Below are positions 4,324 through 62,942 of a stretch of 64,000 nt of DNA, in pieces. The position numbers and the translations under genes are program-made. The stretch spans positions 46,727,847 to 46,791,846 of the forward strand of contig CP154954.1 in assembly GCA_039621445.1 (NCBI GenBank). The letters are read 5' to 3'. Source of the DNA: Euglena gracilis (lineage: Eukaryota). Under the pieces are notes generated by a model that was not told the DNA's origin, did not search any database, and worked only from the letters and a program-made list of their open reading frames with translations. Every line of letters starts with the position of its first letter. Positions within the stretch are counted from its first letter, which is position 1.

Positions 4324-7300
4324 TGTGTGTGTGTGTGTGTGTGTGTGGCCACCATGTGTCTCAACAAACTTGGGGAGGGTATGCACAGAGGGGGGGTTTG
4401 CGCAGGGGTGGATGGTACGATCAGCTGGGCCCCTTGCCACCTCACCTGTGTGTCAATCTCTTGGTAGGAGGAGATCCTGACTCATTTTTGTGTTGGCGGT
4501 ACAAAAAAATTGTTCTGCACCGCCAAAAAAAATTGCTTCAGGCAAGCCAAGTTAGGGCAGAGGGGACAGCCACAACGCCTCCTTCGCAAAGGCAAAATGC
4601 AACGCTTTCCCGGCAACAGCGGCTCGCGGCGACCCACCGCCGGCCCCAACCCTGGTGGGGGGGGGAGGCCGGCCCGGGCGGGGCGAACACCCAGTTGGAG
4701 GGCAGCAGCGACTTCCGCTTGTCCTTGATGACGATGAGGTCCGGCATCGAGAAGAGCAGTGCCCAGACCGACTGCCCGCTGAGGCGGCCCCCCGGTCGCC
4801 CAGGGCCGCCTTGCCGGCTTGCACGGCCACCGGAGAAGTGTCGAAAGCGTTGGGGGGCCGATGCCAGGAAACTGGGGGACAACAACATCGAAACCGCCTT
4901 TCCATCCCTGGAACCCACCAACCAGGCGCCAGGACCTAAAACCCCTTTGCTGTTGGAATGTGCATGAACTTATGAGTGAGAGGAAACCCCCTGCAGAGGG
5001 ATACCCAATCCCCCCCCCATGTCAATGTTTAACGTATTGGGTAACATTAAAACTGTGCTGTGCCAATGTTTGTCTCTTCTTTCTTTACCCCCCGTTCCAC
5101 GACCACTGATTTTCGCCTCCGACTGGGGGGGGAGGTCATTTTCAGGCACAGGATGTGGGGGTGTATGGCCATTTTCGGCCGTTTTTTTGACCATTTTGGG
5201 GGGCAACTTTTAGCCGTTTGCTGTAGCCTTGCACACTTTCAAAAACTTTAATCACTTTGGATAATTTGTAATCATTTTGGGGACTATTGGCCTTATTTGC
5301 GACTTTTTTTTGCAACCATTTTCTGGAGTTAATCCCAACAAATTACAAAGCTTTTCAGCAACGTGCAAATAATGCAAAAAAGGCGAAATTAAATCACAAA
5401 TCTCCTCAACCAACATCGTATACAAAAAAAATGCATGACTGGGGGTCGTTGGACAAGGGGGGAAAAACACAAGAAAAATTGCCAAATCCTCGCTGAACAT
5501 TTTTATGAATTGTGAATTTGTAAACAGGCTTCTCCTTGAAGAGATCCGCAAAAAGAAAAAACACGGGTATTTCAGCTGGCAAATTCCTTTTTTCTGTCAC
5601 ATGATCCAAACCATGCAGAAGCATGCTTTCGGCACATGATCAACAAAAACACAATGAAAAATACACACCGGCACTGTGACGGTGGCAGGTGTGCAAAGCC
5701 ACAGAAAAAGCATGTGGACACCCCCATGTCCAACTCCATCCCTGTCCCAAGATAATCACCACTGTCCAAAGGGGCCATTTCCATCTCTGGGAAAATGGGC
5801 AAAATACTCAAAAAAATGGGGAGCAGAAGCAGACAGGAGAAAAATGAGAAAATGGAGGAACAGGAATGTTGCAACAGGAAGCACATGCCAAAAACCTATG
5901 GGCATAAACCCTTGTTTTTCCATTCTTCTGAAAATCAGAAAAAGGAGGGGGAAATGGACATTTTGGGGACCGCGCAAAACATTCATTGGATGCAAAATCA
6001 CGTGAGAGCATTGAAAATCAGCTCAGGTGAAAAGGCTGTTGAGGGGAAGCAACCAAAAGCGTTCAGGTTCCTTTCCCTGCCAACAGGTTGACCGCCTCAG
6101 GCTGGAACCCCAGGCGCTGCATCCGGTTCCGCTGCACGCCTCCTCCAAACCTTCGAACGGCCGTAAGGGACCGGCCGGGGATGAGGCCTGCCCCGGGCAC
6201 CCGCTGATGCCCCTGGTGGACAGCCAGGAACGCACACATTATGCACGAGCAGGGTGGAGGGCACACAGAGAGGCCGCAATGGGGAAGAGCCACGTGCAAG
6301 CCCCAGCAGGGGCTTGCACGTTTTTTTTTTTAAGACGGCCCCCCCGGGGGGTCGGGGGACCCACTTTGGGGGGATTTTCGACACCGCGAAATGTGAACGC
6401 GGCAAAGCAAACGCGCCAATCAAAAAACTCATCGAAAATTGCTAACCCCCCCCCTAATAGAAGCATGGGTGTGCTTATAGAGGACCGCCGCCTCCGGCAG
6501 CGGGGGGTGCGCTTCTATTTGGACTCTACCTGCGCGGTTTTCGTTGATTTCCTTTAGAAATCCCATCAAAATGGGGGTGCACTTGTAGCGGGGGGTGCGC
6601 TTTTATTTGGACCCTGCGCTTGTAGCGGCCCCGTGATTCTATTAGGGGGGGGGGGGTTACAGCAATTGTCTGTTCAATGCGAACTGAGGGGTATACAATG
6701 GTCAATCAGACTCCGCCCACTTGCTTAGGCGGCGCGAATTGCCCAACCGATTTTTGCGTTTTTTGGCGTTTTTTGGCTGTTGTAAAAACACCTGAAAGGG
6801 TAAAAAGATTTGAGCTGAGAGGGGTGTGTGGCGGCTTTGGGCCAAAATTTAACAGAAGTGGTTTTGCGCGGTATTCCGCTTAGCCGATTTCCAATTGTGT
6901 GTGAGTTGTGTGAGTTGGAAGCATGCTTGTGCTTACCAACCGGGGGGGGAGGGGGGGTGGGTGCTATAGGGTGCCTGCCCCTAGCAGGCACATCCCCCCC
7001 GGGGGGGGATAGGGGTCCGGGCCGGACCCAGAAAATTTTCATTGAAAATGGCCGTTTCCGGGCCCCCGGCGCCTTCGGCGCCGGGGTCTGAGGGGGGTGC
7101 CTGCTAGGGGCAGGCACCCCCCGAAACCCTACCCCCCCCCGGGGGGGGTCGGATCGGGTGCTATGGGGTGCCTGCCCCTAGCACCCACCCCCCCCCCCGT
7201 GGGGTAGGCACCCGACTAAGCGCAAGCCTGGTTGGGAGTGTACTAGAACTGTTTGAAATGGCTGGAAAAACACCGACTTTGAACAGGTGTGACACGGGGC

Positions 7301-10300
7301 TGTGTGTCCATGGTTTACGTTAATAACAGTATTTGAGAGACGAGTGAACAATACAAGTGTGTGCGGATAACCGCGTAAAACGAAACAAGAGGTGACAGAC
7401 GACGGAGTTAAATGTTTAGGCGGTAATCCGCGCACAATGCACTTGTACGCGGACAACCGCGTACAAGTGCAAACAAAGAATGGTACGCGGATTACCGCGT
7501 ACAATAACACAAACAGTTGATGACTGGTGGGAGGGAATCCGCCTGGTATGTGTGTATACGTGTTGAGTGTAAAGCGACTGGGTGTAAGCGGGAATCCGTG
7601 TGGCCGGGTTAAGGGTGAGCAGAAAAAGCAAAGCATTTGTGGACGATGGGATGGGGGGGGGGAGATGGAAACCACCCTAGAAATGAAGTGTGCTGGTTTG
7701 TTGGCAAAGTTTTGCAACCCTACTTGTGACACCAGTCACAGGCGTGAACCTTTGCGAGTACACTGACGACAGACTTTGTTGCCAGGTCGCCAGGCAGTTT
7801 GCAACCGAATGGTGTCCGGAGTGTTGTGGTGAGTTTGAGGGGTGGAGGTTTATGGAAACCAGGGAGAGGAGATTGAACCAGCAGGGTTTGACCAACCGAG
7901 GAGAGACGACCAGCCCTTAAACTAGGGCACTCAGAGCAGGGGTGGTTTCCAAAAGGACCGGAGACACTTGTGTCGAGAGTGGTTAGGTGGATGGAAGCCA
8001 GATGCACCGGGTCAAACATCGACCCGGCGTTGGTTGAGAACGACCGCCTTCTGGTTTAACCCCCCTCCCACACGGCTTTTGACTGGTGAAGACCACCGTT
8101 GCCTCCTCCGGAGGCATGTTACCAACCCCGAAGGAAGAAGAGCCAGAAAAAAAGAGGTGGTTTGGGCATTTTGCCTGAAATTCAGCAAAAAAATGCAGCT
8201 TTTCAAAAGAAAAATGCTGTAACACTGTTTCAAAAAACAATTGAAAAGGCCTTGATTTTCTCAGAACCTGGAGGACTTCTTCCGAAAACCCCCCGAAATT
8301 GTTCGACTGCTGCCACCAACTGCTGAAACAGGAGTTTCTCCGTCCATATCTTGAATCACTTCTTCGTCAGCCTTCCCCAAACCCTGATTTTGGGCCACCA
8401 AGACCGTTGGGTTCCAGGAGGAGGGCTCTGGGAGGTGCTTTTGTTCCTCCTGAGAAATCAACCTCAGTTTTTTGGCCGTTTTTCGGGACAGTAACAAAAT
8501 ATCTTCTCTACCGCAGCTCACCCGGCCTGGCAACTGACACGTGCGTTCCACTGCTGTCCCTGCAGCCACCCCTTCAGCACTAGCCAGGGGGAACATTACT
8601 ACGTCCGAATTGCAGAGGAGGGTGTCCACCTCCTGCTCAAATGCCAGGCGGGTTTCCGCCTGCTCGGTTGCTTGCTGTCACGGTGCAGCAGCTACAGCTC
8701 CCTTTCAACCTGTCCCGACCAACTGTCAAAAACGACGTCGCCACACGTCACCACTGACACCGACACTTTGGGACACCAAAACATCACAAAACACAACCCA
8801 TCAGGACAGCAACAAGCTCCACGCGGGTTTCCGCCCAAACCTCATCTGTGCGGAAACCCGCGCAAACTAAAAACAAGTAGGCGGATAACCGCGCACTTGC
8901 ATCGTTCAATAACGACCCAAAATCCCCTCCCTCTCCCCCAAACCTGTTCATTAACAACTTCACGTGATGACCCACTTCTGGAGGTTTCAGCGCGTTCCCA
9001 CTTCCCGCTCCCACGTACCATCCACAAACACGAACTGTTCTCTTTCTCAAACCCTTCTGCGCGGGTTTCCGCCTGAGGAATCATCACTTCTGTACGCGGT
9101 AAACCGTGTGACCTCGTTTTTAACGTTATTCCCAGTCCAATCCCCTCCGTTAGGCCAGCATCTCTTCATCACAAAAACTCATTTTGCGCGGTTTACCGCT
9201 TAAAACATCTCTTCCAAGAAATTGTAGCATCTGTTGGGCAGTGCTGTGTGTTCACCTCCCCCGTCACTGGACGTCGGCACTCACGAGAGGTTCAAAAATG
9301 CGCGGGTTGCTTAAGCGGTTGCCTCTTCTTCACCTGCCACACTGTGTCACCCCCCCTCCACAGGGGGTCCGACAGCAACGCCAAACAACCCGGGCTCCGG
9401 TGGCCAGGTGTTCTCCGGCTGTTTTCAGTTTTTCAAAATTTCAAGTCGTTCCAAGGGGGTGTTTTCCAAAACCCCCCCTAAAACGACCATAAATTCTCAA
9501 TATCGCCACTTTGTCAAAATGCTTAAAATGGACCCTTAACAACCTAAATTTTCGTGCTGGTGCCATCCTCTCAAAATTTCGAGCACATAACAGTGAGTTT
9601 CGTAAACGGAAACCCGCGCACCCCAAGCGTGCAAAAAATCGCAAAAAATTTGGGCAATTCGCGCCGCCTAAGACTTGGACATTTTTGCTGTGACAAGAGG
9701 CGTGACAAAGAAATTGCAAAAGTTTCGGCGCCTTCGGTGCCGGTCAAAAAAAAAAATCCGACGCCTTCGGCGCCGGGCACCTACCAGCCAAAAAAGGTAC
9801 CCCCCCCCCCCCGGGGGGGACGGCCAGACCCACCCATCCTACCTGCCCCCGGGGTCCAAAGCTATAAAAAAAAATCCTGGCCCCCAAGCCAAGGATGACG
9901 CGCACGGGGGCAAAACACCACTTGGCCCCGATCTTGGCTTTCCTGCTTCAATTTCATGTTGTCTGGGTGTCCGGCTGATTCCTTGTTCTACCCCACGAAT
10001 GGTCTCTGCCCCTTTCCGGGCCATGACCCTGACTTGAGCACTGGTATGTGGAATGCCACTATTACCCTTCAGTGATGTCCACCTTTTTCGGCGCCAGGTG
10101 TCAAGGTTTGAATTATTTTCGAGGTGCTTCTCAATGCAACCATGGGCTGGAAATACAGGGGGAAAATAACGGGAAACAAAAAATACAACAAACCATCCCA
10201 ATTTCCCCACACACCCCTGTAATTTGTCCACTGAACCTTTCCTGGCCCTTTGGGAGAGCCAATCTTACCGGCAGGAGTAGCCAAAACTCACAGACAAAAA

Positions 10301-17300: not shown

Positions 17301-20300
17301 GCCGCCTGTGTGCGTCTCCTCCTCCCCCAGCTGTTGCTCGCTGGCGGGTTGCCCCCCTCCTCCGGGGGGTCAAGCAGCCAACCGCGGCCGGGGGGCACTG
17401 GACCGAACCGTCATCAGCCGTCATTGTGGGCTGCAGTCCAGCGAACCGGTGGGGGGGGTCAGGGGGTGGGGGTCCCACCGGCCGCCGGACTAGATCTGGG
17501 TGGCACCCAAAAACAGGCAAAAAGGCCCAAATCCAGCTGGGTTGTATTTTTAAGCAAATTTTTGAGCTGAAACCCCAAAAAAGAACCGCGTCCATTTTTG
17601 AGCATTTTTCCCAAAAGGTTTTGGCCCTTTGTGCCAAAAAAAAACTGTTTCGGTCAAGCCCGGCTTTGCCGGGCTGCGAAAACCTTATTACTGCTCAAAT
17701 TCCGGGGGGGGGGGGGGGGGGTCTGCAGCCTGACTGGGGCAGGAAAAAGGTTCTGGCTTGCTGGACCTCCCCAGGGGCAGGGTGGGGTCCAGCCTCCAAT
17801 ATGGACATTTTGGGCACTGTTTGGGGGTTTCGGTGCAAATTACCAGATTACCAGAATTGACCTTTTGGGGGGTCCAAGCCCCAGGGTCCCCTGGAAGGTT
17901 GGGGGGGGGGGTGATCCGGGCCCCCCTCTCAGCCTCTGGGGGTGGTGTGGCACCCCCCCCCTCTAACTTAGGCGGCGCGAATTGCCCAAGCGTTTTTTGC
18001 GTTTTTTGGTGTTTTTTGACTGTTTTAAAAACAGCGAAAAAGGAACAAAATTTTGAGTTCAAAGGGTTACGTGGAAGCTTTGGACCAAAATTTTATGAAA
18101 GCGGTTTTGTGCGGTATTCCGCGCATAGTGCAGTACACAACGTAGATGTACGTAAAAACAGGGGTGTTGAGACCCCTGTTACAGGTGCCAGAAAAGTACT
18201 ATATTGTAACGTGTGTACAACGTGGATGTACATTGGTGGTACGTCTGTCTTCACACAGTGTGTGAAGTGAGGTGCACAACACGAGTGTGTGCGGATTACC
18301 GCACAGACCAAACACAACGACGTGTGATACAGGGGTGTGTTGTGTGGTTGGTGTGTTGCGAAGGAAAACTGTGAAAACTGTGAAGTGTGGTTTAGGCGGA
18401 TTACCGCGTAAAGAGAACGCAGTGGTGTTTACGAAGTCCAGGCGGTAACCCGTGTAACCTGTGAAACACAGAACGAAGGTATTTGATGTTGGGCGGGAAT
18501 CCGCACAACACAGCACAACGTTTGTGGTGGGTGTGTGAGCCAGATTACGTGAGAGGACAGATGCGTTTACTTGAAATGTAAACGAAAAATGGTGGGGAGG
18601 CCGGGGGGACCGGGGGGCAGCGTCCTGTCTGTCACACCACACCCCGACACATCCCATGTGCCCTAACCGTCACCGGGACGGTGGCCCAGCCGTGGCCGGT
18701 GACGGGGGTGTGTCCGCCGGGTGTGGTGGTGGGCCAACAGTCGGCTGCCCCATCCCCCTGAAAGAGGGGGCGGTCCTCTCCCCGGCGACGCCTGCCTGTG
18801 TAACTCCCCGGCCTGAACAAGAACGAAGCGGCACGTGAACGGTGGGAACGCCGGTGTTTCCGCGACTGCGGTGATGGCTGGTCGCGAAACGCGACGCAGT
18901 GTGGTTGTCAGTAGAGGGGTGTGTGCGTTTCCAAACAGATGCACAACGGTCTGCGTGGTATGGAAAAGCCAACGGGATGTCTTGTGCGGGAATCCGTGCA
19001 ACACATTCCGAGTGTGCCAAAAAGGAACAGTGAGGAGCCCGGGTGGTCCTTTGACCTCTCCGCACCGCCGGGGCAGGTTGCCCAGACCTCCCCAACGGGG
19101 GTGCGGTTGCGGCGTTTGCGGACCAACGCAGCTGGGGCGACGACGCCCGTCCCGGACTCCCCCGACCGACTGGTTAGGAAAATGGAACCTGGGTGTTTGT
19201 GTTTCACGTTTTGGACGTTTGGTGGTACACCACTGCGTAGGCTCGCGATCGGAATGCGTAGGGCACCGGTCGGTTGTGCGCGTTGAGGTCTGGTGCGGGT
19301 GAGGGAGGCTGTGTGGTGTGGTGTTACACGCCAACGGCGACGATGTGTGCGGGTTTCCGCGTACAAGAACGGACCGACGCATTAGGCGTGAGGCCCACGG
19401 TGCACTGCACAAGATGTCCGCCCCTCCTCCCTCCTACGATTCTGGATCTGGATCGCGAGGCCTTCATTTGGCGTAACCGCCGGCGTGACCACCAACAGTG
19501 GTTTCGCGAATGTTATACAGTCCAGGTGTGATCTCTGAGGAGAGATGTTGGGCAAGTGGCTGTAACGGCCTCTTGTGGCCGAGCTCCCTGGGACCGCCCA
19601 CCCCAGTGGGCAACGCCACTGGTTCCCCGGCCGGTGCGGTCACTTGCCTACTTTTTTCCTTGCGTGCGGACGAGTGCGTGTACGGGTATCCGCTCGGGCT
19701 GCGTGTATACACGGCGTGTGTCCCTTTTGTAGGGTCTCTTTTCTTCTCTTCTGTGGTTGGTGCGGAGGAGGCAGGCTGAACGAAGCGGAAGCTGACAGCA
19801 GTTCCGTGTACCCCCGGGGGGGTTGGTCTAGGCCACTGAGGGGACTCAGTGCACACGCCCAACTGGGCCGCACGATTGCGTGCTGTAGACCTCCCCCGGA
19901 CACGACTACCTGGGACCCTTTCGCGACTGGGGGTGGTTGGTGGTACACGACTGGTTTACGGTTCCTGTGTCGTTCGCGAGACACATCCGTAGGGTGGACT
20001 GCTGCTCCCTTGACATCACCCAAAACAGGCCTCCTTCTACGACGTGGAGGTGTGGTTTGTGCGGGAAACCGCACAAACCACACCTCCACCCCCCAGATCA
20101 CGGTGTTTTTCCAGGGGTTATGTCGCAGCGGCACATCCCGTTCGCGAGGGGGTACAAATCGCGAGAATTCCAACATCCGCTTGTACCACTAAACACTCTG
20201 GATCGCGACGAGGTCCCAGGGCCTTCGGTTTTGGAGGGCCGTCTTACCTGGAAAAAAAAATAAAACAAACACAAAAAAAACGCAAAAACAACCAAAAAAA

Positions 20301-23300
20301 AAAAAAGAAAAAAATCGAAAAAAAACAACAACACAATAAAAAATCCAAACCATAAACAGCAATAAAAAAAAAAAAACATAAAAATCAAAAAAAAAAAGAA
20401 GTGAATCCCTAAAAAAACAAACAACCAACACCACAATAACCAACCAACAAAAAAACACACACTAAAAATTACAATAAAAAAAAAAAAAAAAAAATCAAAA
20501 AAAAAAAAAAAAGGAATCGCGCTCTTAATTGCGCCGTACGGACCGATCAGGGTACTGTTGCCCCCGCCGGCTTCAAATTTGAGAAACCCTGAACAAACAG
20601 CAGCCTTCCATGGCTTTACACGGGAACCCGCACAACAGCGCAGAATCAAACGCAAACGGTGTCGTGGTGAGTTACCAGCAAAGGAAATACAAATACATTG
20701 CGACGTTCCCACCAGTTGTGCAGAAACCCGCGTAGAAGCGGTCTACAATGGCTGCGGTGTGTGGTACAACACAGTGTGCTGTGATGACAGATTTGAATCC
20801 AAACACAGTGCAGTGTTGTGCGGATTCCCGTGTAAAGGACTGAGCCCTTGTCGACACGACAATATGACATTGCTCCACTGCCCACACGTGGGTGAAACTC
20901 CGTGGAAACTGCACATACGTGGGTGGTCTTTGTCCATTCACTGAAAACAGTGTTCAGCATGTACAGTAGATGTGTGTACATTGCGACCCTGAGTCACGCA
21001 CACACTCTCTGCTGCGCGGTAATCCGCACAACTCTCATCTGTCTCAGACTGTGCAAAAAAAAAAATGGCCGCCTCGTCTGAGACGCTGGTGTTGCAGCTG
21101 GACCAGCTGCGGGGGTACCTTGCCGGCGCACCTCCGGTGGATGGTTGGGCGATCCTGGAGGACGCCCTCCGAAGAGGCCAACTGGGAGCCCTCAACCTGG
21201 TGGAGACGGGCCTGGCCGTCAGGGCCAACCGCCGGTCCCGTCGCAGCCTGCGGGAGGTCCGGCGGGAGTACACCCGGCCCCCGTCCGAGCGGCCGATGTG
21301 GATGGCCCGCTTCACCGACGGGCTGCTGGCGCTGTGGAGGACGCTGCGACGGCTGGCCGTGCCCTTCGGCGAGCTGGTCACGCCGGCGGCCGCCCTGGCC
21401 CCCGCCCCGGCGCAGCAGACGCTGCAGGACCTGCCCCGCGCTACCCGTCGACTGCTGCGGCCCGCCGGTCTGGTGGGCCCCACGGAGGAGCTGGTGCGGG
21501 AGCGGGCGCGAAGGGCCCGGGACGCGGTGCTGCGGGCGTTGGACGGCCACCAGTGCGTGCTGTGGCTGGACAACTTCTGCTGGCTGCGGTGGGGCACGGA
21601 CCCCACCCAGCCCAGCTACAGCCGCAACGTCACCGCCCTGGGTTCAGGGTGCCTACTCTGCCTTCTCCAGTTGGTGAAGTGGGCCTGACGATGACCATCC
21701 GTGCATGACAAGACGTGCGCGGTTTTCCGCCTGGGAATGTTCTGTCTTATAAAATGCACTGAATGAATGAACTGTTCAAGAACACCACGAGTTGGGGTGA
21801 CACAGTTGGTGACAAGGGACAGGTGAACGGCGACACTGGTGAAAACAGAGCTGAACATCCCCCAAGGTGTGTACAGGGTTCAGTACAAAGGTGGTTGTCA
21901 GACGCGTGTGTGCGGGTTTCCGTGTAACCAGTGTTGGTTTGTACGGAAACCCGCACACTTCAGGGTTGTGTATGCGTACATGTACGTACCTGGTTGGCTC
22001 AGTGAGCAGGCCCTCTGTGCGGTGACTGCTGCAGATCGACCCCCTGCGAACTCGTCAGGGCACTTTGACGCGGTCCGTGACGTTCCCCGTGTCCACGGGT
22101 CACCCGGAGTTCGGGACGGTGGTGCAGCACCTCCGCTGGGCGGCCGACCTGTGCCTGCAGTCGGCGAAGAAGCTGCACCAGGCGGTGCGCGGCCTCCACC
22201 GGGCGGAGCTCTCGGTGGACAACGTCCGCGTCCCGCTGGACATGCAGCGGGACGCGATGCGGTCGCTGCGGTGGAGGCCCTTCTCCCTGACCGAGCAGAC
22301 GGTCAGCTCGAACCGGGACCTCCTCCAGCTCCTGGAGACCGTGCTGCAGCTGCAGGCGCGGTCGGGCCGTCAGCTGCCCCTCCTGGTGGATGAGAACATC
22401 CACTACCGCATCCTCCGCCTCCTGTACTCGGCCCCGGCGCTGCGCTTCCGGATGGGGGAGCACCTCGCCAACGTCCCCCTGCTGTACGGCATCTGGCATG
22501 CCTACAAGCACACGGTGACGGTGGTGTACCGGGCGTTCTTCCCGGTGCTGGCCCACCTGGAGGTGCCGGTTGGCGCCGGGGGCAGCCGGCAGCTCACGAC
22601 GTCCCTGCGGTCGCACCGGAAGGTGCTGTACATGGAGAAGCTGTTCGCCAGCCTCCTGTTGACCCGGGCCGACGTGCTGCCCCAGCCAGGGTGACCACTG
22701 CCCGAGCTGGCTGCTTTCAGGCTGCACCTGGTACATCGGACCAATGTTTGTGCGGTTATCCGCACAGTCATGTCGTGGGTCACTTGGTGTCACATCTCTC
22801 CCTTCTGTCCGTCACAGTCTGTCCGCGTTGTGCGGAAACCCGCGTAAAGGACCCTGGTGATAGGTCACGCAGGCCAACTTTGGGTGGAGACACTTCCAAA
22901 GCTCGTCTGTCACTCTGACGCCACCTGGAGGATCGTCTCCGGGAGGAGAGCCAGCGCGTGCACGTCTCCGCCCCCACTGCGGCCGACGCGTACGGCCCGC
23001 AGCTGCTCCTGGGGCTGCACCGCCTCCTGACCTTCTTCCTGCCGGCCCTCCTCCACCTCGGCTTCAAGGTGCGGCAGTGCACCTGGCGCGGCCGCCCCGA
23101 CGACGAGGTGAAGGGGGAGACGGCGCGGCAGGTGCTGGAGCGCTGCCTGGTCCTGCAGGCCCACCTCGAGCGGGCCATGAGTCCGCATGGCCTCCCCTCG
23201 GAGTACATGCGGACCATCTCCCTGGCCCTGCTGACCTGGCAGCCGTGGATGTCCCGCCTTCCCGGGTGCGTCTTCGTGGAGGAGGCCGGCGAGGCGATGC

Positions 23301-26300
23301 TGTCGCGCCTGTCGGGTGCCTGCCGTCGGTCGCCGTACGTCACGGACTTCCGGGGCACCCTGCAGCTGTTCCTCGGCCTGCCGCCGCCGTCGGGGGCGCC
23401 GCACGCCAGCCGGGGTTCCCTGCGGCTGGGACTGGTCGCCGAGATGACCCGCCGGGTGCGCCAGCTGGCGGACCACCCCGAGGGCCGCCCCTTCCCCCGC
23501 CGGGTGGACGCCACGCGGATCGCCTGGGTGGACGCCTCTGAGGTGGAGTTCCCCCGGTGGGGGTCCCCGCCCATCCTGCCGGAGATCGTGGACGTCCGGG
23601 CGCTGGAGGCCCTGATGCGGACCTCCCTCCTGACGTTGGTGAGCGGCCGGGCCCTGACCCCCGACATCCTGGTCTGGATGCGGGAGAACGTCGGGCCGGT
23701 GGACCCCCAGGAGTTCGCCCGTCGCCAGCGGGCGATGGACAACTTCCTCCACCAGCGGCAGCGGCGGCGCCGCAGCCCTACGCCTCCGGGGGACGTCGAA
23801 CCGGCGACCAGCGGGCAGGCGGAAACCCGCGCAGAGGCGGCGGCCCGTGCGGAAACCCGCGCAGCAGCAGAACCTGCACCGCCGGGGATGAGGCCTGCTG
23901 AGGAGTCCCCGGTGGAGGGCCGGGTGCGGTTCACCCCGGAGGAGCCCAGTTCCTCCGCGGCCGAGGCGGCGGTGGTGCAGCCGCCTGCGGTGCAACCGGG
24001 ATGGCCGGCGCTGGAGCTGCCCGAGGCGGAGAGCCTGTACGAGCCGCCCAGTACAGCGGAGTCGCTGTACGAGCCCCCGGGCACGCTGTCCGAGGGGTAC
24101 GTCTCCCCGGCGGCCTCCCAGACGGCCTCGGCAGTCTGGGGGAGCTGCCTGAGCAAGCCGCCCGACGTCATCGGGGTCCTCCTCCTCGGATGAGGACCTC
24201 AGTCTCTCCCCGGCGGTGTGTGTCCCTACCGGACCCCGGTCTTTCTACGTGGTCCTGAACCTTTCTGTATATCAGGGAGTCAGATGGAGGCCTTCAGAGC
24301 GAGGGTGAGGGTTTGTTTCAGAATGTAAAGGGGGTGGCGGGCGGGTTTCCGTGCAAAAGCATTCTCCACCCAGCCAGAAGGGGGGTGCTCTGTGGGGTGG
24401 TCACTGCTGTGTTTCCTTTAATGACAATTATTTTTTTGATTGAACTGACTGTCCCAGATTTTGTGCTTATTTATATTCACAAAAGTGTTTGTGTGGGGAC
24501 TGTTTCTGACCTGAATTTCCTTCATTTCGGCTGTTTTCACGCTGCCTCGTTTTTTTAGACCTCTGATGGCAGCCCGGAAGCCCACGGCGCCCACTCGCTC
24601 GGCGACGGAGCTGGTGTCGAAGACCCCGACCCCGCTGGCCCGTGTCCGGAGGGGGTCTGGAGCTGGCTGGTGTGGTTCTGTACTTTTTTTTTGGCCGTAC
24701 AATCGTCCGAGGGTGTTTGACGGTTCCTCATTCCTGGGATGTTTTCGAAAGTACAGGAGAAGTCACTCCGTTTGTTAGACGACACTCACCCAGTTTGTTT
24801 CAGTGTCATTGACGCCCTTTGGTTTCTACAGCTGTGCGGGTTTCCGTGCAAACCGCTCAGATTTGTGTTTGGCGTGCGCGTGCAGCAGACAGACCAGTTG
24901 AAACCCTGGAGAGCCAGACAGCCTCCGCGCCTTGACGTGTTGGTGCTGGACGAGACCCTCACGCGAGGGCAGGTGCGGCGGGTCGAAAAGGCCCACGTGG
25001 ACAGCCTCGTCAAGGCGTTCACGGAGAACCCGCCGGTGGGGGCCCTGAGCTTCGTGGTGTGGCCGGAGCAGGGTGTGTTTTGTTTCTGCGAGCATAGTTG
25101 GCCAGCCTGTCTGTATTCATGGATGTTGTAAATGGCGGCGGATGCTTCGCACGTGACGAAATAATGAAATATACACCATTTGTTCTTTTTTTTTTGGAGT
25201 TGGGGTGGTGATCCAGGCGGGAATCCGTGCACCTGAACAAAACTCAGTGGCACTGTTGTCCTCCCTGTTTTCACAGCGACGGGGAAGTTCGTCATCCTGA
25301 GCGGGCAGCACCGCTTCCTGGCGGCCACCCAGGTGGCGGACGCGGCGGTGGCCGACGCGCGGCCGGCGCCGCAGTGGACCGAGTGGTTCAACTGCCACAC
25401 GGTGCTGGGGTCGGCCAGCCTCGAGGAGAGGCAGCGCGTGGCGGGGAGCATGCAAGCCCGGGACGGGACGGTGAGGGAGATGTCCCTCAGCCAGCGGGTG
25501 GAGTGGCTGGAGCGGGAGGTGGAGCGGGAGCGGCCGGGGGCGGTGCCGGACGGCGAGGCGGGGACCGCCGCCCGCCTGACGGTGAACCGGACGGAGCTGC
25601 TGAAGCGGGTGTACGTGAAGACGGGGTGCACGGAGGCGTCCCACGGCAAGATGGTGTGTGCGCGGATTTCCGTGTGCGCTGTTTTCCGTTTGATGCAATG
25701 CACGGATTCCCGCTGACACGGCTGGCTTCCTTTCTTTTTTTGCTTGTCAGAGGGAGAGTGAGTGCGCGCACCCTGTCCTTTGATATTCCAGCTATCACGT
25801 ACACATCACTCTCCCCCCCCCCAACTCTCCCTGACCTCATCTGTGCAGGACAACTGGGTGAAGTCCATGCAGCCGCTGGCGGAGTGGCTGCTGCACAGCG
25901 GGCGGCCGGTGGTGGAGGCGGTGCGGGCGCTGGAGGCGCGCCCCACGACGGGGCGGTGGCGGCGGCGTGTCCCAGTACGCGTTAAAGACGATCGAGCAGC
26001 TGTACGACCCGCAGGACTACGTCGCCCTGACGAGGGAGATGCTGGACGAGGCGGCGAAGGCGACGACGGTGCGGCTGGTTCGGATGTCCATTTCACTGTC
26101 TGTCTCCGTTGGGACTCTGCCCGCACTTTCACACAGACAGCCAGACACAGGCGCACGCACACAAGGAAACTGTGATCATACGGGGGACAGTTCAACCAGT
26201 TTTACTGTTCGAGTGGATACAGAGACAGTACGCGGTAAACCGCACACCACACCATGCGCGCTGGGGTGGAATGTGACGGGGGAGGAATGGCACTCCGCCG

Positions 26301-29300
26301 TCAAGGCGGTGGTGGGGACGCTGATCCGCCGCCGCGCGTGGACGTGGCTGCTGATGCACCCGGACCTTCACCACGTTCACCCGACCCGCCGTATGTCTAC
26401 TCTGCGCTGTCTTCCGCACTGTGTGACCACACGGTTTATTCTTAAGGTTGTGGTTCTCAGGCGGATTTCCGTGCAGATCTCCATTTTGTCATTCTCATGC
26501 GGGTTTCCGTGGAAAGACGCTTGTACATGGAAGCGTGTGTAGTGAGGGGATTCTTTCCTGAAGTCACCGTTCTCGTGCTCAGGTACCCTGGACATGGTGC
26601 CCAGCCTGGAGCAGAGCATGGACAGCGCGGACATCAAGGTGCCGCTCACCGGTACCAACTGGCGCTGGTCGGCCCAGCACCCGTGCGCAGGACTCTCCAG
26701 GACACGTGTGTGCACTTTTTCCCTTTACCTTTGGTTAGTTACACATGATTTTTTTTTTGGTACACGGGAACCCGCGTGAAATATCACAAGTCACATCACA
26801 ATGTTACGGAGTGCAGCTGTTTCATTTTTGTGTGTCCTGGCTCAGGATTCTCCCTGCGATGTCTGAGGGTCGGGGGGGTCCTGAGTCCGGCCACCGCGGG
26901 AGGCGGTCCTCCGCTCCCCCCTGTGGGGGACTGAGCGCTACGCCCCCCTGCGGGCGCGGCTGGCCCAGCCGCTCGCTGAGCCCACGGTGCGGTACGGGGG
27001 CCGCTTCTGCACCCTGGACCTCAGCGGTGGCGGCGGTCGGCGCGGGGCGGCCACAGCGGCGGCCGGCAGCAGCCGGGAGGAGGCGGAGGGGTCCCCCAGT
27101 CAGCCCACGTCTGGGGAGGGGGAGCTGTTTGAGGCTGGCTCTCCGCGGGCGGGCAGCCGGTCCACCCGGGGGCGAAGAAGGGCGGAGGCGGCGGAGCGTG
27201 GGGAGAGTCCCGAGCCGTCCCGCCTGGCGCACGTGGTCCCCCTCCACCCCACCGCGGGGATGCCGCGGGAGATCATGGAGCTGAACGTCGACGCGGTGGT
27301 GGTGGAGGTCCCGGACGGGCTGAGCGACGCCGACGTCCACCCTGAGCTCCTGAGACTGTGGAGCCGTGGGGTGCCGTTCGTGGCCACGGGGCGGGCGTTC
27401 GCCATCGGGGCCCTGCAGCAGACCCTGCAGAAGGGCATGGACGTCCCCGACGAGATGCGTCGTGTGGACGTCACCCTGCACCGGCCGGTGAAGTCCAACG
27501 TGGACCGCACCTACCTCTTCAACGTCACCACCGTCACCGCCCTCTTCAGCAGCAAGACGGACTTTCGGGTGTGCACACCCTTCGTTTCGGTTTTTATTTT
27601 AAGCAACAGACTGTTCTCTCTTTTTTTGGGGGGGGGGCACGGGAATCCGCACAACTTTGTGGAGTGCACGGGAATCCGCACAGGACAGATACACACCCGT
27701 GCACACAGGGGATAATGTCCGTGCACACGAACGTTTCTTAAGATCTACGCTATGACTCAGAAAATCAATGTTCCACTGCCGTGAGGTGTTGGCACACCTT
27801 CATCTCCCCCCACAGGTGCCGCGGCAGATCACCCTCGTGGGACAGGGTCAGGGCTGTGTTTACACTGAACAAACAAAAAAAGCAACATCACAATGACACC
27901 ATTGGTCAGTTCATAGGTATTGGTACAGTTCTGTTCATCGAAATGATTCCAGGTCCAGGTTAGACGGTTTTCCGTCCACTTCTCGTGATTATTCCATTTC
28001 TCCTGGTGAAAGAACGACGTTTAGTTCCACAGGGTGAATTTCTTTTGGCCAATTCCCTTTTCAATCCGCACTCGGCTTCCCTCCCGCCTGAAGCTGAGAC
28101 ACAGCTCTGCGGGGGAGGGGCCGCCCACCCTGCCGGTGGAGGTGGCGTGGTGGCTGCTGGCGCGGCTGCACGTGGAGGCCCACGACTGGGTGCTGGCGGT
28201 CACCCGCCACGCCGCCCTCCCGGCGGACCTCGCCACCCGGCTGCAGGTCCCCATCGGCGTCATCTGGGGGGACCCCGACCTCCTGGAGGAGGCGGACGAG
28301 GCGATGCAGCTGCGGGTGGACCAGCTGCAGCGCGAGATCAAAGTGGCCGATGGGAAGCCGGCCATCCTGTGGGATCAGGGCGCCACCCCGGTGCAGGCCA
28401 GACGAAGGGGGGGGGGGACGTTTGCCCGTATCGACTCTGCGTGCATGAGCCGTCAGTACAGCATCGGAACGTGACGCACAGCGTGCACGCGGTTTCCCGC
28501 GCACAGTGCACGCGTGCGGATTCCCGTGGAGCGGTGTGCTTGGCTGTTGCTATGACTGGTTTCTCCGTTTTTCATCCCGCCCCAACTGGGTGGTGGTCCC
28601 TGTGGCCATCAACGTCCACCACCGCATCACCCACCACGAGCCCCTGGACGTCTCCGGCCGGGGCGGGCTGGAGGAGGAGGAGGAGAAGGGGGAGAAGGAA
28701 GAGGAGGACATGCCCCCCCGGCCAAAGAAGAAGGAGCCGGAGAAGAAGGGCCGGGAGCCCTCGCCCCCGCCGCCAGCCAAGGGGCGGGGCAAGAAGGAGA
28801 CCCCCGCCAAGGGGAAGGAGAAGGAGAAGGAGAAGGCCCCCCCGGCCGCCAAGGGGAAGGAGAAGGGGAAGGAGAGGGCCCCTGCCGCGAAGGAGCCTGA
28901 GGCCCCGGTGACGCCGGCCAAGCAGCCGTCGACCGGCGGCGGCGCGGCGGCGGCGGGCCGCAAGGGGGCCTCCACCCCCTCCGGGCTGCGGAAGGGCGCG
29001 GCCGCACCGCCAGCAGCGGCGCAGGAGCCGCCGGCGCCGGAGACCCCGGTGACGGGCCGCAAGCGCACGGCCCGCACCCCGCCGCCCGCCGAGTCCGCCG
29101 CCGGTGAACCGGAGGACGAGATTGAGGAGATCGTCCCGCGACCGCCCCCAACACGGTCCCCCCTTCAGCGTGTGTCCTATCAATGTGCTTCCTTCAGCCC
29201 CTGGGTTTTGCAGCCACAGCTTGGCACGCGGGAAACCGCACACGTGCGTCTTCTTCTGCGCTGCACGGAAACCCGCACACAATCTCCTATACTCTTTTTT

Positions 29301-32300
29301 GGGTTCAGGAGGTTTTGCGTGCACACAGCCTGTGCCCTTACAAAGTCTGGACGGATCTAGGACCCTATGTTCGTCAGTGATGTTCTGCTTGCAAAGTGCA
29401 CGGGAAACCGCACACAGCTTGCTGACTCATTCGGTACACGCGTACACCCCTCCCTCCCTCCTCCAAACCATCAAGTCCAAGGGGGGAGGGTCAGCTGAAG
29501 AAGAAGCCCACGCCGGCCGGCGCGCTGGAGGAGCTGCTCAACGTGTGAGCAGCAGCGGGGGCCGGGCGGGCCGGGCGGGCGGGGCGGGGCGCGGCGGGGC
29601 GGCAGGCAGCCGCCATCCCCACTGAGTGCACGGCCGTGGACGGCCGTGGGCGGCCGACGGGAGCAGCTCTCTCTGCACCCTGCTGTGTGGACCGCCCGAG
29701 GCTTTTGAACCTGGGACCGCCCGCTGCTTTTGTTTTTCGTGTGTCACACACCCTCACCGCACACCCACTGTCCCCGGGGACTGCCCAAACGCCTTTCACC
29801 TTTCGACGGGAACCCAACCCCTGGACCACTCCATCATCCCGTTTGTTTTTCACCTGGGACCCACCGGACGCCCCAACCGCCGTGTGAGGTCCAGGGCACA
29901 CATTCCTGGTCACCCATTCAGTGGGCCCGTGTCCAACCAACCCTTTCGTTATTGCAGTGCACAGAGTGTGTAGATCCCTCTCTGACACATACCCCTCTCT
30001 GAGACCCGTGTGCCCTGGACCTGGAACACCCATTCGGCTGTCCGTTTGTCCCCTCCATTTGTCTCTCTTTTCCCCTCTGGACCGCCCACAGAGACTTCGT
30101 CTCACTCTCTTCCCCCCGGGACCAAGGACCCCTCCAGGACCAGGACCAGTGCTGCACGGTGATCCGCACAAACACACCCTTCCCCTCCCACCCTTCTTTC
30201 TGTCGTTGCGCTTCGTGTGCTATCGCAGTCTCTCTCTGGCAGGCGGGCGGTGAGGGGGAGGGGGCATGGGAGGAGGGCTGCCTTGGGTTAGGTGCCCCAG
30301 TGGATGTCACGTCCAGTTCCAAGTCAAACGTCCCCATGAGTTTCCCAGTGTGTTTTTGCACGGATAACCGCACAAGTTCACTTTTAACCATTCATAGTCA
30401 CTCAGCCCCCTCTCGTAGTGTTAACCCCTTCGCGCATGCTGCATCTGTCCTGTGCGGTTTCTCGCCTAACAGACCATCTGTCAAAAATTACAGAATCAGT
30501 TCCGCAGTGGTGTTCGTTTCCCCCCTCCCGTCACTGGTCGTTGGCACTCACCAGTCCTCCAAAAGTGCACGGGTTGCTTACGCGGGTGCCTCTCCGTCAC
30601 AGGTTTCGCCATGTCACCCCCCTCCCGGAGGTGGGGTCCGGCTCCGTCGTGACACGGCCGGGGCTTCGACGGTCAGGTGTTCTCCCACCCCTTCCCCGTT
30701 TTCATATTTTCGGCCTGGTTTCTGGGGGGTATTTCACAAAATCACCCCTTTTCAGCCATTAATTTCCAAAATCGGTCACGTGTCAAAACTGTGGAAACAG
30801 GCGGAAACCCGCGTACAATTTCGGGGTTGCAGTAACTATCACAAATATCAGTTGAGTTTCGGGGGGGTGGCCTACACGGAAACCCGCACACCTGGACCGC
30901 CTAAAAAATGGCATAAAATTTGGGCAATTCGCGCCGCCTAAGTCTAACCCTGCCCTCCCTGCCCCCCCATGAACAGCTTGGGCTGGGAACGCAACACGGA
31001 TCCTCCACAATGCTGCACAATAACGCGCAAAAAAAAGCAGCAATTTTGCCAAAATAAAAAAGGGAAAATACACACCGCATGTTCCCCCTGAACGGACCCA
31101 TGGCGGTGCCCCCCGCTCCTCCTCCTCCTTCCCTGCCATGGCCTCGCGCTTGGCCTCCTGGCGGGCGACGTCGGTGACGCGCAGTGGGCGGCCGACCACC
31201 GGGGCCGGCACCTCCCGCCACGTCATGTACGGGGACACCTTCGCCGGGCGCTGCTGCCGGGGCGGGGGGATGGGTGATTTGGGCGGCGGCGGCAGCTGCT
31301 GCTGCTGCTGCACAGGAGGGGCGACGTCTGGGTCGATGGGGACAGAGCTTGCCCCTTCATTGGCAGCTCTGGCAAAAAAAGAAAAGAAAAGCACAGGAGC
31401 AAGGGTTCGTTGATTTTTTGATCTCCTACCTTTTCCTGTTTCATGGTTACAAGTCACGTGCAATTATTCTAGAATAAGAAGACCAAAATCCTATACCTGG
31501 CTGTCTCTGGGGTTTTGAAAATATGGAAAGTGCCAATGGAAAACCCCTCAGGTTTATTATTATTATTTGGGGGGGACTCCCCAAATAATATCCCCCCCTG
31601 GGAATTTTATTTGGTCGGCCGAAGTCCACCCTCAGGGGGGGGGGAGAGTATTATTTGGGGGAGGATATTATTTGGCAAATTTTGTTTTTTTCTGTAAAAT
31701 TTTGACCGCAGCATGCATTGTACTCCATGTTGAACACCACCAAAGCCCATGGTGCCATGGTGGGTGGAATTATTGTTTCCAAAAAGTGCAATTTGGTTTT
31801 CAATCTGAATACGGTAGAATTCATATAAAACTTGCACAAAAATGTGGTTCCAGCTCTCAGGAAAACTCAGGTTTTTCTGTAGTGGTCCGTGAAAAATGGA
31901 AAGATATCATTTGGGGGGGTTACCTACAGGAACAGATCGGACAGCATCGTGTGCAAAAACTCCAGCTTCACCAACTACTGACAGCACATTAGAGATGCAA
32001 TTGAGTTTTGCGCGTTGAAGCTCGATGCCAAGGGCTCAATACACCACTGGCACCCAAACAGCTGATGAGGGGCCAGAGGTGAGGAAAAGCACCGTGCTTC
32101 AGTGATTGCTGCTGCAGGGCCAGGCACGGTGTCAGGGCACCGAGGGATATCGGAGATCGGAGATCCCACGGCGCATTTCCCCCTTTAACCAGGCAGGGTG
32201 ACAGAAGATTGGGGGAATGGCACACTTCCATGCGCCACGAAGTGGCTCTCCTTCAGTGCGGTTTTTGATCAAATTTGGTCCCAGGGTTGCGCTCTTTGCT

Positions 32301-46259: not shown

Positions 46260-49200
46260 CGCCCAGCAGGAGCGCTGGCCTGACCGCCGGCCGCAGGCGC
46301 CCCGCCGCCGCCGGATGGACCTCCCGCAGCAGCCGGAGGGACGGCAGGATGGTGCACGACGACCGGCGGGACCCCTTGAGGCGGGCGAGGTCCGGCATGC
46401 CGAGCAGCACGTCCCGCCACCCGTACCCGCGCTTCGTCCCCATGAAGAACTTCAGCAGCTTGACCCCGCGCCTGCCAGCGCCTCTGGCCCGGACGGCTAA
46501 AATCATTGAATATTCCAGCAATTGTATTTTTAATGTCAGAAACACTGATGCATCGGGAACATTTTTTTGAGATTTTGAGATTGCGGGGAAAATGCTGGAA
46601 GAAGGAATACAAAAAAACATCTCCTCCTCCTCTTTCTCCTCCTCTTCCTCCTCCTCCCTCTTCTTCCTTTTCGATCTTCTTCCATTCCCAGTTGGAATGA
46701 TTGGGTCAATTGACGGACAACTCTTGGAAACAGAGCAGTGATTGAGCTCTCGACACTCTGCAACAGCATCAAGTGTGGCACCAGTTCTTCCAATTCAGCG
46801 CTCCACACTGCAACACTAGTTGTCAGTCCGGAGGCGGCCGATGTACAGCCCGGCGTAGACGTCGAACTGCGAGAGAGGGACTCCCTCCGGGTAGTGCATG
46901 ACGCAGTCCCGCACGATGTCGCGCAGCTCAAGGAAGCCGACCTTAATACCCGCCTTACGGAAGGTCTGTTGGGCGCGGTGGCCGACCCGGATGACAACCT
47001 CCTTCCGGTTCACCGCCCAGTCCGGCACTGGGGGGATGCCGCACCGCAGCAGGAGAGGGCAGCCATGGGCGCTTGCCGTTGCGCAAAAAAATAATAAAAA
47101 ATAAAGCACAAGGTGTTTGAGTGTTACAAACTGTATTTACCTGCGGCAAATCTTGAAATTTCTTTGTTGTATACCCTTCATCCTTCGTCTGAGGGAGTGG
47201 ACTGGGAATCGTCGGGGAGGGGGGAGTGATTGCACAAGGAGAAATAACTGGCAAACTCATTCATTTTGGCACAGGAATTGTTTATTCTTCGTCTGGAAGG
47301 TCATTGCAGTGGTGGGTGCAGTGGAGAAAATGGAAAATTTGAAGGAAAAATGAAAACACAGAAGCACCCAAGGATTGAACAATAAACCCCCCTCGGGGTC
47401 TAACTTCGCCAACCGAGTTAACATCCCCCCCAATTTTCGGGCCAACGACCTGGATTTCGCCCTGAAAATGTAGGTAAATATCATAATTTCTGATGTCAAA
47501 TTACGGGGGAAAAATCGATTTTTCTGGATCATCTGGCCTCCAAAAAGGCCTTATTTCATGAGAAAATACAATAAAAGACCCAAAGGGGGCCTTGGGGTGC
47601 CATTCCATGAGACTTTGAAAATTTTCGAAATTTTGGGGAGCTGTCACCCCCCAAATAATACCCCCTCGGGACGGGACTTGAGGTCAAAAAATAATACCCT
47701 GGGGGGTATTATTTAGGAGGGGGGTTGCTCTTATTTGGCAAATTCGACCTCAAAATGGGTTGAACCTATGTGAACAACATCAAAATACATGGCAGGTACA
47801 ATTCTTTAGAAACAGGCAATTTGATATTTTCCCTTCCAGTTTCATTTGGAACGTGGCCATGTAAAACTTGCGCAAAAAAATAGGTCCAACTCTCAAGAAA
47901 CACATTTTCCCCATCATGGCGGTCAGTGAGGAAATCGGGGGGTGGGGGATATTATATAGGCGGCTGAAGTCGGATCCAAGAGGGAAAATTATTTGGGATT
48001 GTTGGGGGAGGAGGAATATAAACTGGAAGGGGTTTTATTTTTTGGGGGGTTAAATGGCAGCCCATTCGAGGGTCCCAGGAGAAGGACCTGAAATGGGAGT
48101 CCCACTTGTGCAGACCCTTCGTGCGGGTGTATGGATTCGTCGTGTTTCACCACAAACATAGCACCATAATGGCGAAGGGGTGCCCCCCACTGTCCCTTCA
48201 ACTGTTTCGAATTGCAAAGTCCCTTGTCTTCTGGATCTTAGGCGGCCGATTTCGCACTTAAGCTTTTTTCCTTTTGATGCGCACATTTGCGCAAATGTAC
48301 CATTTTTTTGTAACCCCTGGGACCCTGTACCCTGACACCCAGAACACGATTTAAGAACTGTTACACCCCTGTATTGGAGGGGATTAACTCCCAGTGGTCT
48401 GGTGTGCATGCTGCTTACCGGGTGACGTTAATAGGGCTGGGGGTGAGACTGGTGCTGTTGTACATCAAACGGGAGAGAGGCACACACCCCTTGTTACGAC
48501 ACTGGAAACGGTGCTGACGTGCTGCCTGAACTGGCTGGGACACTGCCGCCACCGATGAGAACACACGAAGCCTCATTAGATCACACCACCACAGACAGAC
48601 AGACTACGTGAGGCAGCCGTCACGCAATTGATGTGTGTTTATGCGCGCAATTGCGCAAATAAAAACAATTGTGTTTATGGGCGCATTTGCGCAAATAAAA
48701 CGTAAACCGATGATGATAAAATGACGTGTTGGTGGGCGCAAATGCGCGCACCAACTTATTTGGTGGTGTGCGCATTTGTGCAAATGCGCGCACCAACACG
48801 TTTATGTTTACTTGCGCAAATGCGCCCACCAACATGTACTTTTACTTTCTACGTTAAAAGACACCAATGAGGACCATACCCCAGGAGGTTTAAAAACGTG
48901 ATGGGGGTGTTGGTGCGCGCAATTGCACAAATAAACACAATTACATTTGGTGCGCGCATTTGCGCAAATGCGCGCACCAAACATTTAATACACCGCTTCA
49001 AAATAATGTGTTTGTAGGAGCCTTAGAGCACACAAACAAAGTTGTGTTCACTTGCGCAAATGCGCGCACCAACACACACCAGTTGCGTGATACCATCTCC
49101 TCCTCAGTGACAGCTGGCGAACGCAACTCCTCACGTCAACCAATGGTTTGCACCACGTTTACGTGCTGATGAAATTTGTGGTGAGAGGTGGTGTGGAGTG

Positions 49201-62800: not shown

Positions 62801-62883
62801 AAAGCAGAATCAAAAAATTCGTAAATTTGCGCAAGTGCGCAAATCAAACAAAAAATGCTTAAGTGCGAATTAGGCCGCCTAAG
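59876..62883. mobile_element. Second subfamily B element (3,008 bp), colinear with 48237-51227
   Basis: Ends CTTAGGCGGCCGAATTCGCACTTAAGC and GCTTAAGTGCGAATTAGGCCGCCTAAG; TSD TCGGT (59871-59875, 62884-62888); similar to 48237-51227 along its whole length, same orientation. Confidence 0.92.
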
Positions 62884-62942
62884 TCGGTGACTGACGTGGT
62901 CCAGGCGGGTCCCACCTGACGGCTGCCCAAAGCCAAAGAATA

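Follow-up and report, generated by a model that had tools for sequence, protein, structure and literature searches.

A 64,000-nucleotide stretch of the Euglena gracilis genome (contig CP154954.1 of GenBank assembly GCA_039621445.1, forward-strand positions 46,727,847 to 46,791,846; hereafter the window) contains a 12,976-bp DNA transposon whose second gene (gene 2; 24566-29160 of the window, + strand) codes for a predicted ParB/sulfiredoxin (Srx)-type domain with an intact GQHR motif, and whose non-coding DNA is studded with an 18-bp palindrome found in the window only within this element and a shorter derivative of it. We propose that gene 2 is an accessory gene of a cut-and-paste transposon and that its protein recognises the element-wide palindrome, a reading to which we give slightly better than even odds (a probability of about 0.55). 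An earlier, sequence-only reading of the same DNA had described a transposon-borne ParB-like domain fused to an inactivated amino-methyltransferase fold. Of these features, the transposon and the ParB-like domain prove to be real, and every peptide quoted in that reading is present in the reading frames; the claim of a dead methyltransferase is unproven and draws no support from the statistics of the sequence.

The ParB/Srx-type domain and its relatives

The domain is encoded by two exons: exon A (24886-25072), recognised by alignment to the homologue P0097, supplies its first half (...NPP...VVW), and exon B (25277-25653) its second half together with the helices that follow, the GQHR motif lying at 25303-25314. 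Between them is the GT-AG intron (25073-25276; GTGTGT...CACAG) across which the sequence-only reading had joined the exons, and which itself holds one palindrome site (25217). P0097 has the whole domain without an intron; exon A matches its residues 26-67 (E 1e-9) and exon B its residues 75-176 (E 1e-12). As the two exons thus align to neighbouring stretches of one protein, joining 25072 to 25277 rebuilds a single contiguous domain, just as had been supposed.

With exon B (126 residues) as the query, an exhaustive phmmer search recovered 92 proteins at E<=1e-3, of which 31 reach E<=1e-10 and none E<=1e-30; two of the 92, a mucin (P0013) and a protein of integrase repeats (P0087), are chance matches. 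Most of the others come from assemblies of metagenomes or runs and are short fragments whose ends match the exon ends of the window, the outcome to be expected of a prokaryotic gene caller applied to genes with introns. By our reading of the alignments, three members (P0031, P0033 and P0096) have a Met start and the whole domain, with an apparent short in-frame intron read through. The relatives found all look like intron-bearing eukaryotic genes, and the prokaryotic derivation of the module, which the sequence-only reading had assumed, is unproven. In an alignment of 50 of the 92 members with exon B (51 sequences), conservation is 90% or higher at G10, Q11, H12, A16, P32, F38, C40, A56, G57, Q60, L109, Y113, G117 and G124, all of which are present in the window. 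These include the G, Q and H of the GQHR motif, the fourth residue of which is R, K or others across the family. The ParB/Srx-type pattern with GxHR noted earlier is therefore borne out by the family, its conserved G/Q/H and, as described below, by the fold of a homologue. Run against the window, the family profile identifies a single ParB-like gene, matching the open reading frame (ORF) of exon B only (E 5.9e-50). One 138-residue homologue of exon B, P0009, is named 'RecA/RadA recombinase' by one source, a name that finds no support here.

When the 56 rows of a family alignment (A3) were scanned singly, the three most-matched PHROG families, with 11, 7 and 7 rows and a best E of 9.4e-4, were all named ParB-like partition protein, the next family having three rows; Pfam ParB_N (PF02195) was matched by one row (E 0.042) and DUF1015 by two. 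An AlphaFold2 model of P0097 built from the same alignment has a mean predicted local distance difference test (pLDDT) score of 76, with every 10-residue block of residues 21-180 above 84 and most above 90. In a Foldseek search of the PDB with this model, KorB or Noc accounts for all six matches at E<=0.001 (1.5e-4 to 8.3e-4), followed by structures of ParB with cytidine di- or triphosphate, PadC, pNOB8 ParB, Spo0J and sulfiredoxin. The alignments of the model to ParB-parS (6t1f_B), KorB (8qa9_B) and Noc (7nfu_B) span residues 17-198 and end at residues 193-198, past the nucleotide-binding domain, and superpose 135-139 residues at a root-mean-square deviation of 3.7-4.2 Å. The helices beyond the nucleotide-binding domain bind DNA in ParB, Noc and KorB. 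In the model, GQH lies between a strand (76-80) and a helix (82-97), which we take to be the place of GERR in ParB and of GCHR in sulfiredoxin.

Metagenome scans with two further family alignments (A2 and A4) and a viral scan found no DNA of relatives; PADLOC returned just five single, unrelated weak matches; the DndB and DUF262 models had no match in PADLOC or NCBIfam; and Rfam gave no match.

Exon structure and coding status of gene 2

The window has a eukaryotic organisation, with GC-rich exons separated by introns of ~200 nucleotides. Gene 2 appears to comprise ~900 codons in ~11 exons, its start being placed at the ATG at 24566 because homologues begin ~55-65 residues ahead of the domain. 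Downstream of exon B, exon C (25849-26068) is conserved in P0011, P0020 and P0097. It is followed by an intron (26069-26284) that contains one palindrome site (26232) and is absent at that position in P0011 and P0020, which read straight through; hence, intron positions vary within the family. The exon at 26886-27568 begins with a low-complexity linker and continues as a piece (p1, 27200-27568) in which the sequence-only reading saw half of a methyltransferase, with motif IV at 27287-27316. Beyond a GT-AG intron (27569-27815) lies the exon at 28094-28419 (p3), the claimed motif X/I half, in which the peptide PPTLPVEV... begins at 28121. The gene closes with a Lys/Glu/Pro-rich low-complexity tail (28532-29160) that shows coding periodicity.

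G+C content at third codon positions (GC3) in the proposed frames is 88-100%, against 35-53% at second positions: 0.88 for exon A, 0.99 for exon B, 1.00 and 0.97 for the two parts of exon C, 0.94 for 27200-27568, 0.95 for 28094-28399 and 0.92 for the tail. A sliding test confines codon periodicity to the proposed segments of gene 2 and the upstream gene 1. This bias and periodicity together indicate that the proposed exons are real coding sequence. The codon bias across 24880-29160 is extreme, the exon GC3 of 0.88-1.00 comparing with an overall intron G+C of 0.44-0.62.

Of the ten pairs of adjacent coding segments that lead from 24566 into the tail, nine can be connected by in-frame, stop-free GT-AG junctions, the tenth being a frameshift inside exon C, between 25951 and 25969. 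The fusion of the ParB exons to the downstream exons, as claimed earlier, is thus feasible in the sense that they can be chained into one open frame. Further, a 1,335-nucleotide contig from a public run (X16) lacks the intron 27569-27815 exactly: the pieces 26887-27567 and 27815-28372 abut in it (letters 654/655), and the intron that follows is retained. The library type of this run is only guessed, so the contig is either a partly spliced RNA or an intron-less DNA copy; none of the 24 public runs is listed as an RNA run containing the stretch, and in those taken by guess for RNA the introns are mostly covered as well. Judged from the frames and junctions, one gene of ~900 codons would be the simplest model, and it is unproven.

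The host element, its derivative and its copies

The element that carries gene 2 was delimited by a blastn search of 17900-31100 against the remaining window, followed by alignment of the ends. It matched 17956-18122 to 6713-6879 (81%) and 30451-30945 to 9185-9675 (67%), with the left end recurring inverted at 9634-9672. These ends define an autonomous-looking DNA transposon at 17967-30942, with both genes on the + strand and non-coding ends of ~3.1 kb and ~1.8 kb. Its left terminal inverted repeat (TIR; 17967-17989, CTTAGGCGGCGCGAATTGCCCAA) is perfect over 23 bp and imperfect over ~40 bp, and returns reverse-complemented on the - strand at 30920-30942; the flanks carry the target-site duplication (TSD) TCTAA at 17962-17966 and 30943-30947. 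A non-autonomous derivative of 2,949 bp (6724-9672, + strand) has the same 23-bp TIRs and its own TSD, ACTTG (6719-6723 and 9673-9677). TIRs, target-site duplication and non-autonomous derivative together confirm that the ParB-like gene is transposon-borne, as the sequence-only reading had stated.

According to the compilation in PMC12730594, a TSD of 5 bp fits only hAT5 or the CACTA-Mirage-Chapaev-Transib group, the latter usually ending in CA...TG. The termini of the large element are CTTAGG...CCTAAG and not CA...TG. Given the 5-bp duplication, these termini and a transposase without a recognised family, the element may be a member of an undescribed group.

At least part of the stretch is contained in 20 of the 24 public runs listed, which come from 18 studies. 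In one DNA run (X1), 3,995 contigs match it at 90-100% likeness, 1620 of them at 99+%, 1380 at 95-99% and 995 at 90-95%, which indicates that the element family has many diverged copies. This spread, the frame break in exon C and a second break in gene 1, to which the homologue P0001 aligns in two frames, are what would be expected if the copy in the window were a dead relic, a decaying pseudogene of an old insertion with no present function. We consider this fairly probable, and the frameshifts make the window copy probably defective. Several features fit poorly with advanced decay: the 23-bp TIRs are still perfect and the TSDs intact, GC3 of 0.94-0.99 is retained, and exon B keeps all family-invariant residues. 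One X1 contig departs from the window exactly at the exon C break and, by hand reading, keeps the frame. Moreover, such a fate would bear on this copy and not on the family.

An element-restricted palindrome

The palindrome, TGyGCGG-WWWW-CCGCrCA, occurs at 55 distinct sites, all inside the two elements: 41 in the large one (18111-30887, of which 37 are in non-coding DNA), 14 in the small one and none in the other 48,074 nucleotides of the window. The pattern GCGGDHHHCCGY gives 81 strand matches against 1.63 expected, the largest count in shuffled sequence being 7. Similarly, a motif of the introns, which proved to be the core of the same palindrome, has all 18 of its matches within 19351-30885, with 1.05 expected. 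In the large element, the density is 4.8 sites per kb of non-coding DNA against 0.75 per kb of exons, and the derivative, at 4.75 per kb, resembles the non-coding DNA of its larger relative. At least one site is present in 13 of the 14 non-coding stretches, the fourteenth having a degenerate copy at 27965.

One of the sites is the centre of a perfect 21+21-nucleotide palindrome (20044-20089), for which a folding energy of -28.3 kcal/mol (z -10.8) is calculated as single-stranded DNA; it adjoins an A-rich low-complexity tract of ~280 nucleotides (20245-20520) in the 5' non-coding part of the element.

A second repeat family of the window also has a palindrome of its own. Its two non-coding copies (48236-51234 and 59875-62890), each ~3.0 kb long and 88% identical over 3,043 nucleotides, have TIRs of ~74 bp and contain all 13 window matches of the pattern GCGCGCAWWTGCGC.

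A proposed role for the gene 2 protein, and its alternatives

The protein of ~900 residues would thus begin with a nucleotide-binding domain of the ParB/Srx fold and with helices superposable on the part of ParB, Noc and KorB that binds DNA; a middle part conserved in relatives, a C-terminal region of ~240 residues and a basic low-complexity tail would follow. It would most likely bind the 18-bp palindrome, which is present about every 200 bp in the ends, spacers and introns of the element; with the palindrome also in the non-autonomous derivative, it would be bound there too, so that the protein would mark the copies of its own element. Such marking might keep the copies expressed, as an anti-silencing device, or might help to assemble or regulate transposition. 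The analysis shows the fold, the family, the transposon and the distribution of the sites, and from these we infer that the protein binds the palindrome, uses a nucleotide and has a biological effect.

Several observations weigh against this proposal. With respect to the domain, Pfam found no ParB family in nine window pieces or in any of 13 homologues, NCBIfam had no ParB match for any of ten queries, and the sequences of the PDB gave no match to the profile of alignment A3 or to P0097 alone; the curated thresholds of Pfam ParB_N and NCBIfam ParB are thus reached by neither the window pieces nor the homologues. The structural model is that of P0097, 30-45% identical to the window exons, and not of the window protein itself. 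With respect to the gene, a single transcript for all exons is unproven, and the window copy is frameshifted in each of gene 1 and gene 2. With respect to the sites, no ParB-like gene accompanies the second repeat family in the window, as judged by the family profile; a family with palindromes in the absence of ParB implies that palindrome arrays may be general in the transposons of this genome. Finally, the palindromes could equally be sites of the gene 1 product.

This last possibility can be stated as an alternative in its own right, in which the palindromes serve the gene 1 transposase, like the subterminal repeats of other TIR elements, and the ParB/Srx domain acts without them, e.g., as an enzyme that depends on a nucleotide or by activating another protein. 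Site density is highest in the terminal non-coding parts, with 12 sites in 17967-21064 and 7 in 29161-30942, and the non-autonomous element, which is necessarily moved in trans, retains 14 of them. The fold too offers precedents: proteins of the ParB fold that have no evident DNA-binding domain can activate DNA-modifying enzymes, as in the phage ParB homologue described as activating a DNA dioxygenase (PMC13229309), and Srx, SerK and SbnI are described as using the fold as an ATP module (PMC12704722). However, the TIR itself is devoid of the palindrome motif, and sites in 13 of the 14 non-coding stretches, many of them far from the ends, have the layout reported for an accessory anti-silencing protein. 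Further, the structural match continues into the DNA-binding region of ParB, Noc and KorB. We therefore regard a role confined to gene 1 as unlikely.

The palindrome-recognising accessory protein that we favour also admits a bolder version, which we consider less likely than not, in which the transposon runs a ParB-parS-like system: a nucleotide-gated clamp would load at the palindromes and spread over the element, with the C-terminal domain being either a fold not seen before or a reader derived from the scaffold of a methyltransferase. Spreading on autonomous and non-autonomous copies would then shield them from silencing, or would pair and position copies for transposition. Were this true, the family of 92 clusters would represent a widespread class, as yet without a name, of DNA clamps that transposons encode in protists.

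The C-terminal region and the methyltransferase claim

The C-terminal ~240 residues of gene 2 are clearly coding and belong to no recognisable family. The sequence-only reading had assigned them to a beta-class amino-methyltransferase with degenerate catalytic motifs, a domain that would be spread over three exons. Pfam at E<=10 reports no methyltransferase family for any of six gene 2 pieces, and neither do NCBIfam and the PHROGs. We also constructed two N6_N4 profiles, one from E. coli YhdJ and 80 of its relatives and another of 20 sequences, comprising 14 of the YhdJ set and six phage methyltransferases. In hmmsearch with filters off, 27200-27568 and 28094-28399 score -3.0 and -3.5 bits with the first profile and -2.9 and -3.3 bits with the second; the three joined pieces go unreported, with 300 shuffles reaching up to 0.2. 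As a positive control, the YhdJ-only profile gives scores of 69-128 bits for the six phage methyltransferases, whose identity to YhdJ is just 24-31%. Further, hhalign returned a probability of 0.17%, and semi-global profile alignment of the C-terminal region gave nothing positive.

The register of the alignment made earlier by eye does recur when the whole profile is forced onto the region: the peptide at 27287-27316 falls on SVDLIFADPP, PPTLPVEV on HPTQKPIA, and an 18-residue peptide on ENHPTQKPIALLERI. What does not stand is its significance, as the score of 3.8 compares with -2.8 +/- 5.3 for shuffles (z 1.24), 17 of 150 shuffles do as well, and the FxGxG block falls on gaps. The proposed motif IV site reads EVPD (27305-27316), with no (D/S/N)PP(Y/F) in the C-terminal exons, and the proposed motif I (FxGxG) site reads VTRHAA. 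The sequence-only reading had also looked to homologues with an intact DPPY or SPPY; searches with the C-terminal exons yielded 7,244 candidates in one case and 14 in another, none of which was scored as a homologue, and a feature search reached a best score of 0.79 with no lead.

Two other assignments were tried and rejected. That of p1 to the ComEC metallo-beta-lactamase has an E of 0.005, which sums two stretches with E values of 7.8 and 40 on their own, and that of p3 to a tetrapyrrole methylase an E of 0.27. By eye, p1 resembles ComEC about as well as it does a methyltransferase, which implies that such patterns arise easily.

A decayed N6/N4 methyltransferase fold at 27200-28419, fused to ParB as a non-catalytic DNA reader, is therefore a doubtful interpretation, to which we allow some weight mainly because of published precedent. 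ParB-like accessory proteins with DNA-methyltransferases are described in algal transposons (PMC12477816), ParB-N6_N4 methyltransferase fusions in phages (PMC12704722), and inactive methyltransferase domains in DIRS1 elements (PMC4738411). The coding character of these exons (GC3 0.94-0.95) and the recurrence of the proposed register are consistent with it; the library searches, the profile scores below zero and the shuffled controls speak against it.

Relationship to known systems

ParB-like accessory proteins of algal transposons, some of them fused to methyltransferases, were already published in 2025, and the idea of the sequence-only reading is thus less new than it assumed, with proteins combining ParB-like and DNA-methyltransferase domains in print (PMC12477816). 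The nearest parallel described there is a 1,104-residue accessory protein of a 21.5-kb transposon family of Ectocarpus, Sola1-1_Ec32. As in the Euglena element, the gene lies beside the transposase in a large transposon with TIRs, and its product of ~1,000 residues has an N-terminal ParB-like domain and is likewise proposed to bind and modify its own transposon (PMC12477816). By the same account, its methyltransferase is recognisable and its gene on the opposite strand, whereas we find no methyltransferase signal, a gene on the same strand and a transposase of no recognised family. A second algal case, PAG3 of the giant red-algal (Bostrychia) Plavaka/EnSpm elements, combines a ParB-like domain with a 2-oxoglutarate (2OG) oxygenase, is adjoined by tandem arrays of inverted repeats and is proposed to bind its own transposon (10.1101/2025.02.11.637652). 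It shares with gene 2 the ParB-like N-terminus on a transposon accessory protein and the inverted repeats of the element as proposed sites. In place of the 2OG oxygenase and the tandem arrays described for PAG3, the Euglena element has an unrecognised partner domain and single palindromes across its non-coding DNA, introns included. Beyond the algal transposons, chlorophyte Dam-type enzymes that have a helix-turn-helix of the ParB type are described alongside the inactive DIRS1 methyltransferase domains (PMC4738411).

Among prokaryotic systems, the bacterial ParB, Noc and KorB clamps, with their parS, NBS and OB sites, similarly have many palindromes of ~16-18 bp on the replicon that encodes them, binding to the palindrome being predicted in our case. 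The structural match of the homologue model reaches their helical DNA-binding region as well, and the strand-helix motif GQHRFLAA of the window presumably stands in place of the GERRFRAA of ParB. Unlike them, gene 2 is eukaryotic and intron-bearing, codes for ~900 residues, has Gln-His for Glu-Arg and falls short of the Pfam and TIGR thresholds. No Pfam family was found in the scanned ORFs of the element and, hence, no ParA-type partner among them. The G-x-H-R motif is nearer to the GCHR of sulfiredoxin than to GERR, and we assume that it also resembles the DGQHR of DndB-type proteins; unlike the gene 2 protein, sulfiredoxin is a single small domain that acts on peroxiredoxin.

A 2025 survey describes ParB-fold fusions to N6_N4 methyltransferases in phages and reports ATP/GTP binders among the ParB-fold proteins (PMC12704722). 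The phage and plasmid fusions resemble gene 2 in joining a ParB-fold N-terminus to a further domain on a mobile element; unlike it, those described there have a recognisable PF01555.

The closest parallel for the distribution of the sites comes from an unrelated protein family. VANC21 of the Arabidopsis VANDAL elements is described as binding a short motif in the introns, between the genes and in the terminal non-coding parts of its own transposon (PMC5735166), and here too a transposon-encoded accessory protein goes together with a short motif accumulated in the introns, intergenic and terminal non-coding DNA of the element. In contrast to our palindrome, the VANC motifs are, by that account, non-palindromic and tend to be tandem; and while the function of VANC is known from chromatin immunoprecipitation and electrophoretic mobility shift assays, that of gene 2 is predicted.

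What is new at this locus is the combination of dispersed sites, an unrecognised partner domain and an unclassified transposase. We found no report of a ParB-like accessory gene with intron-dispersed palindromes, or of an element with these termini, in the literature, where the supplements of both algal papers may hold related families. Transposon proteins that recognise their own element are rare, with VANC alone having been studied by experiment, and the ParB-like accessory proteins that algal transposons encode came to notice no earlier than 2025 and have yet to be tested. At this locus, a protein of the ParB fold whose nucleotide motif is intact is paired with a sharply defined, element-restricted 18-bp palindrome, a compact and testable system that is well suited to a binding experiment. 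If the protein does bind the palindrome, the principle of the ParB clamp would apply in eukaryotic chromatin as well, and it would be explained how a transposon family marks its own copies.

Gene 1

Gene 1 (21065-24305, + strand), delimited by its homologues and codon periodicity, is presumed to be the transposase by its position only and matches no family in Pfam, the PHROGs or the PDB. Its coding segments lie at approximately 21065-21650, 22026-22694 and 22919-24193, and its tail is frameshifted near 24150-24226 relative to P0001. Six relatives, 96-37% identical to it, all end in the same tail, which marks gene 1 as a separate gene that ends before 24566. This conserved acidic tail, common to the six metagenome proteins, contains repeated ESLYEPP and GYVSP.

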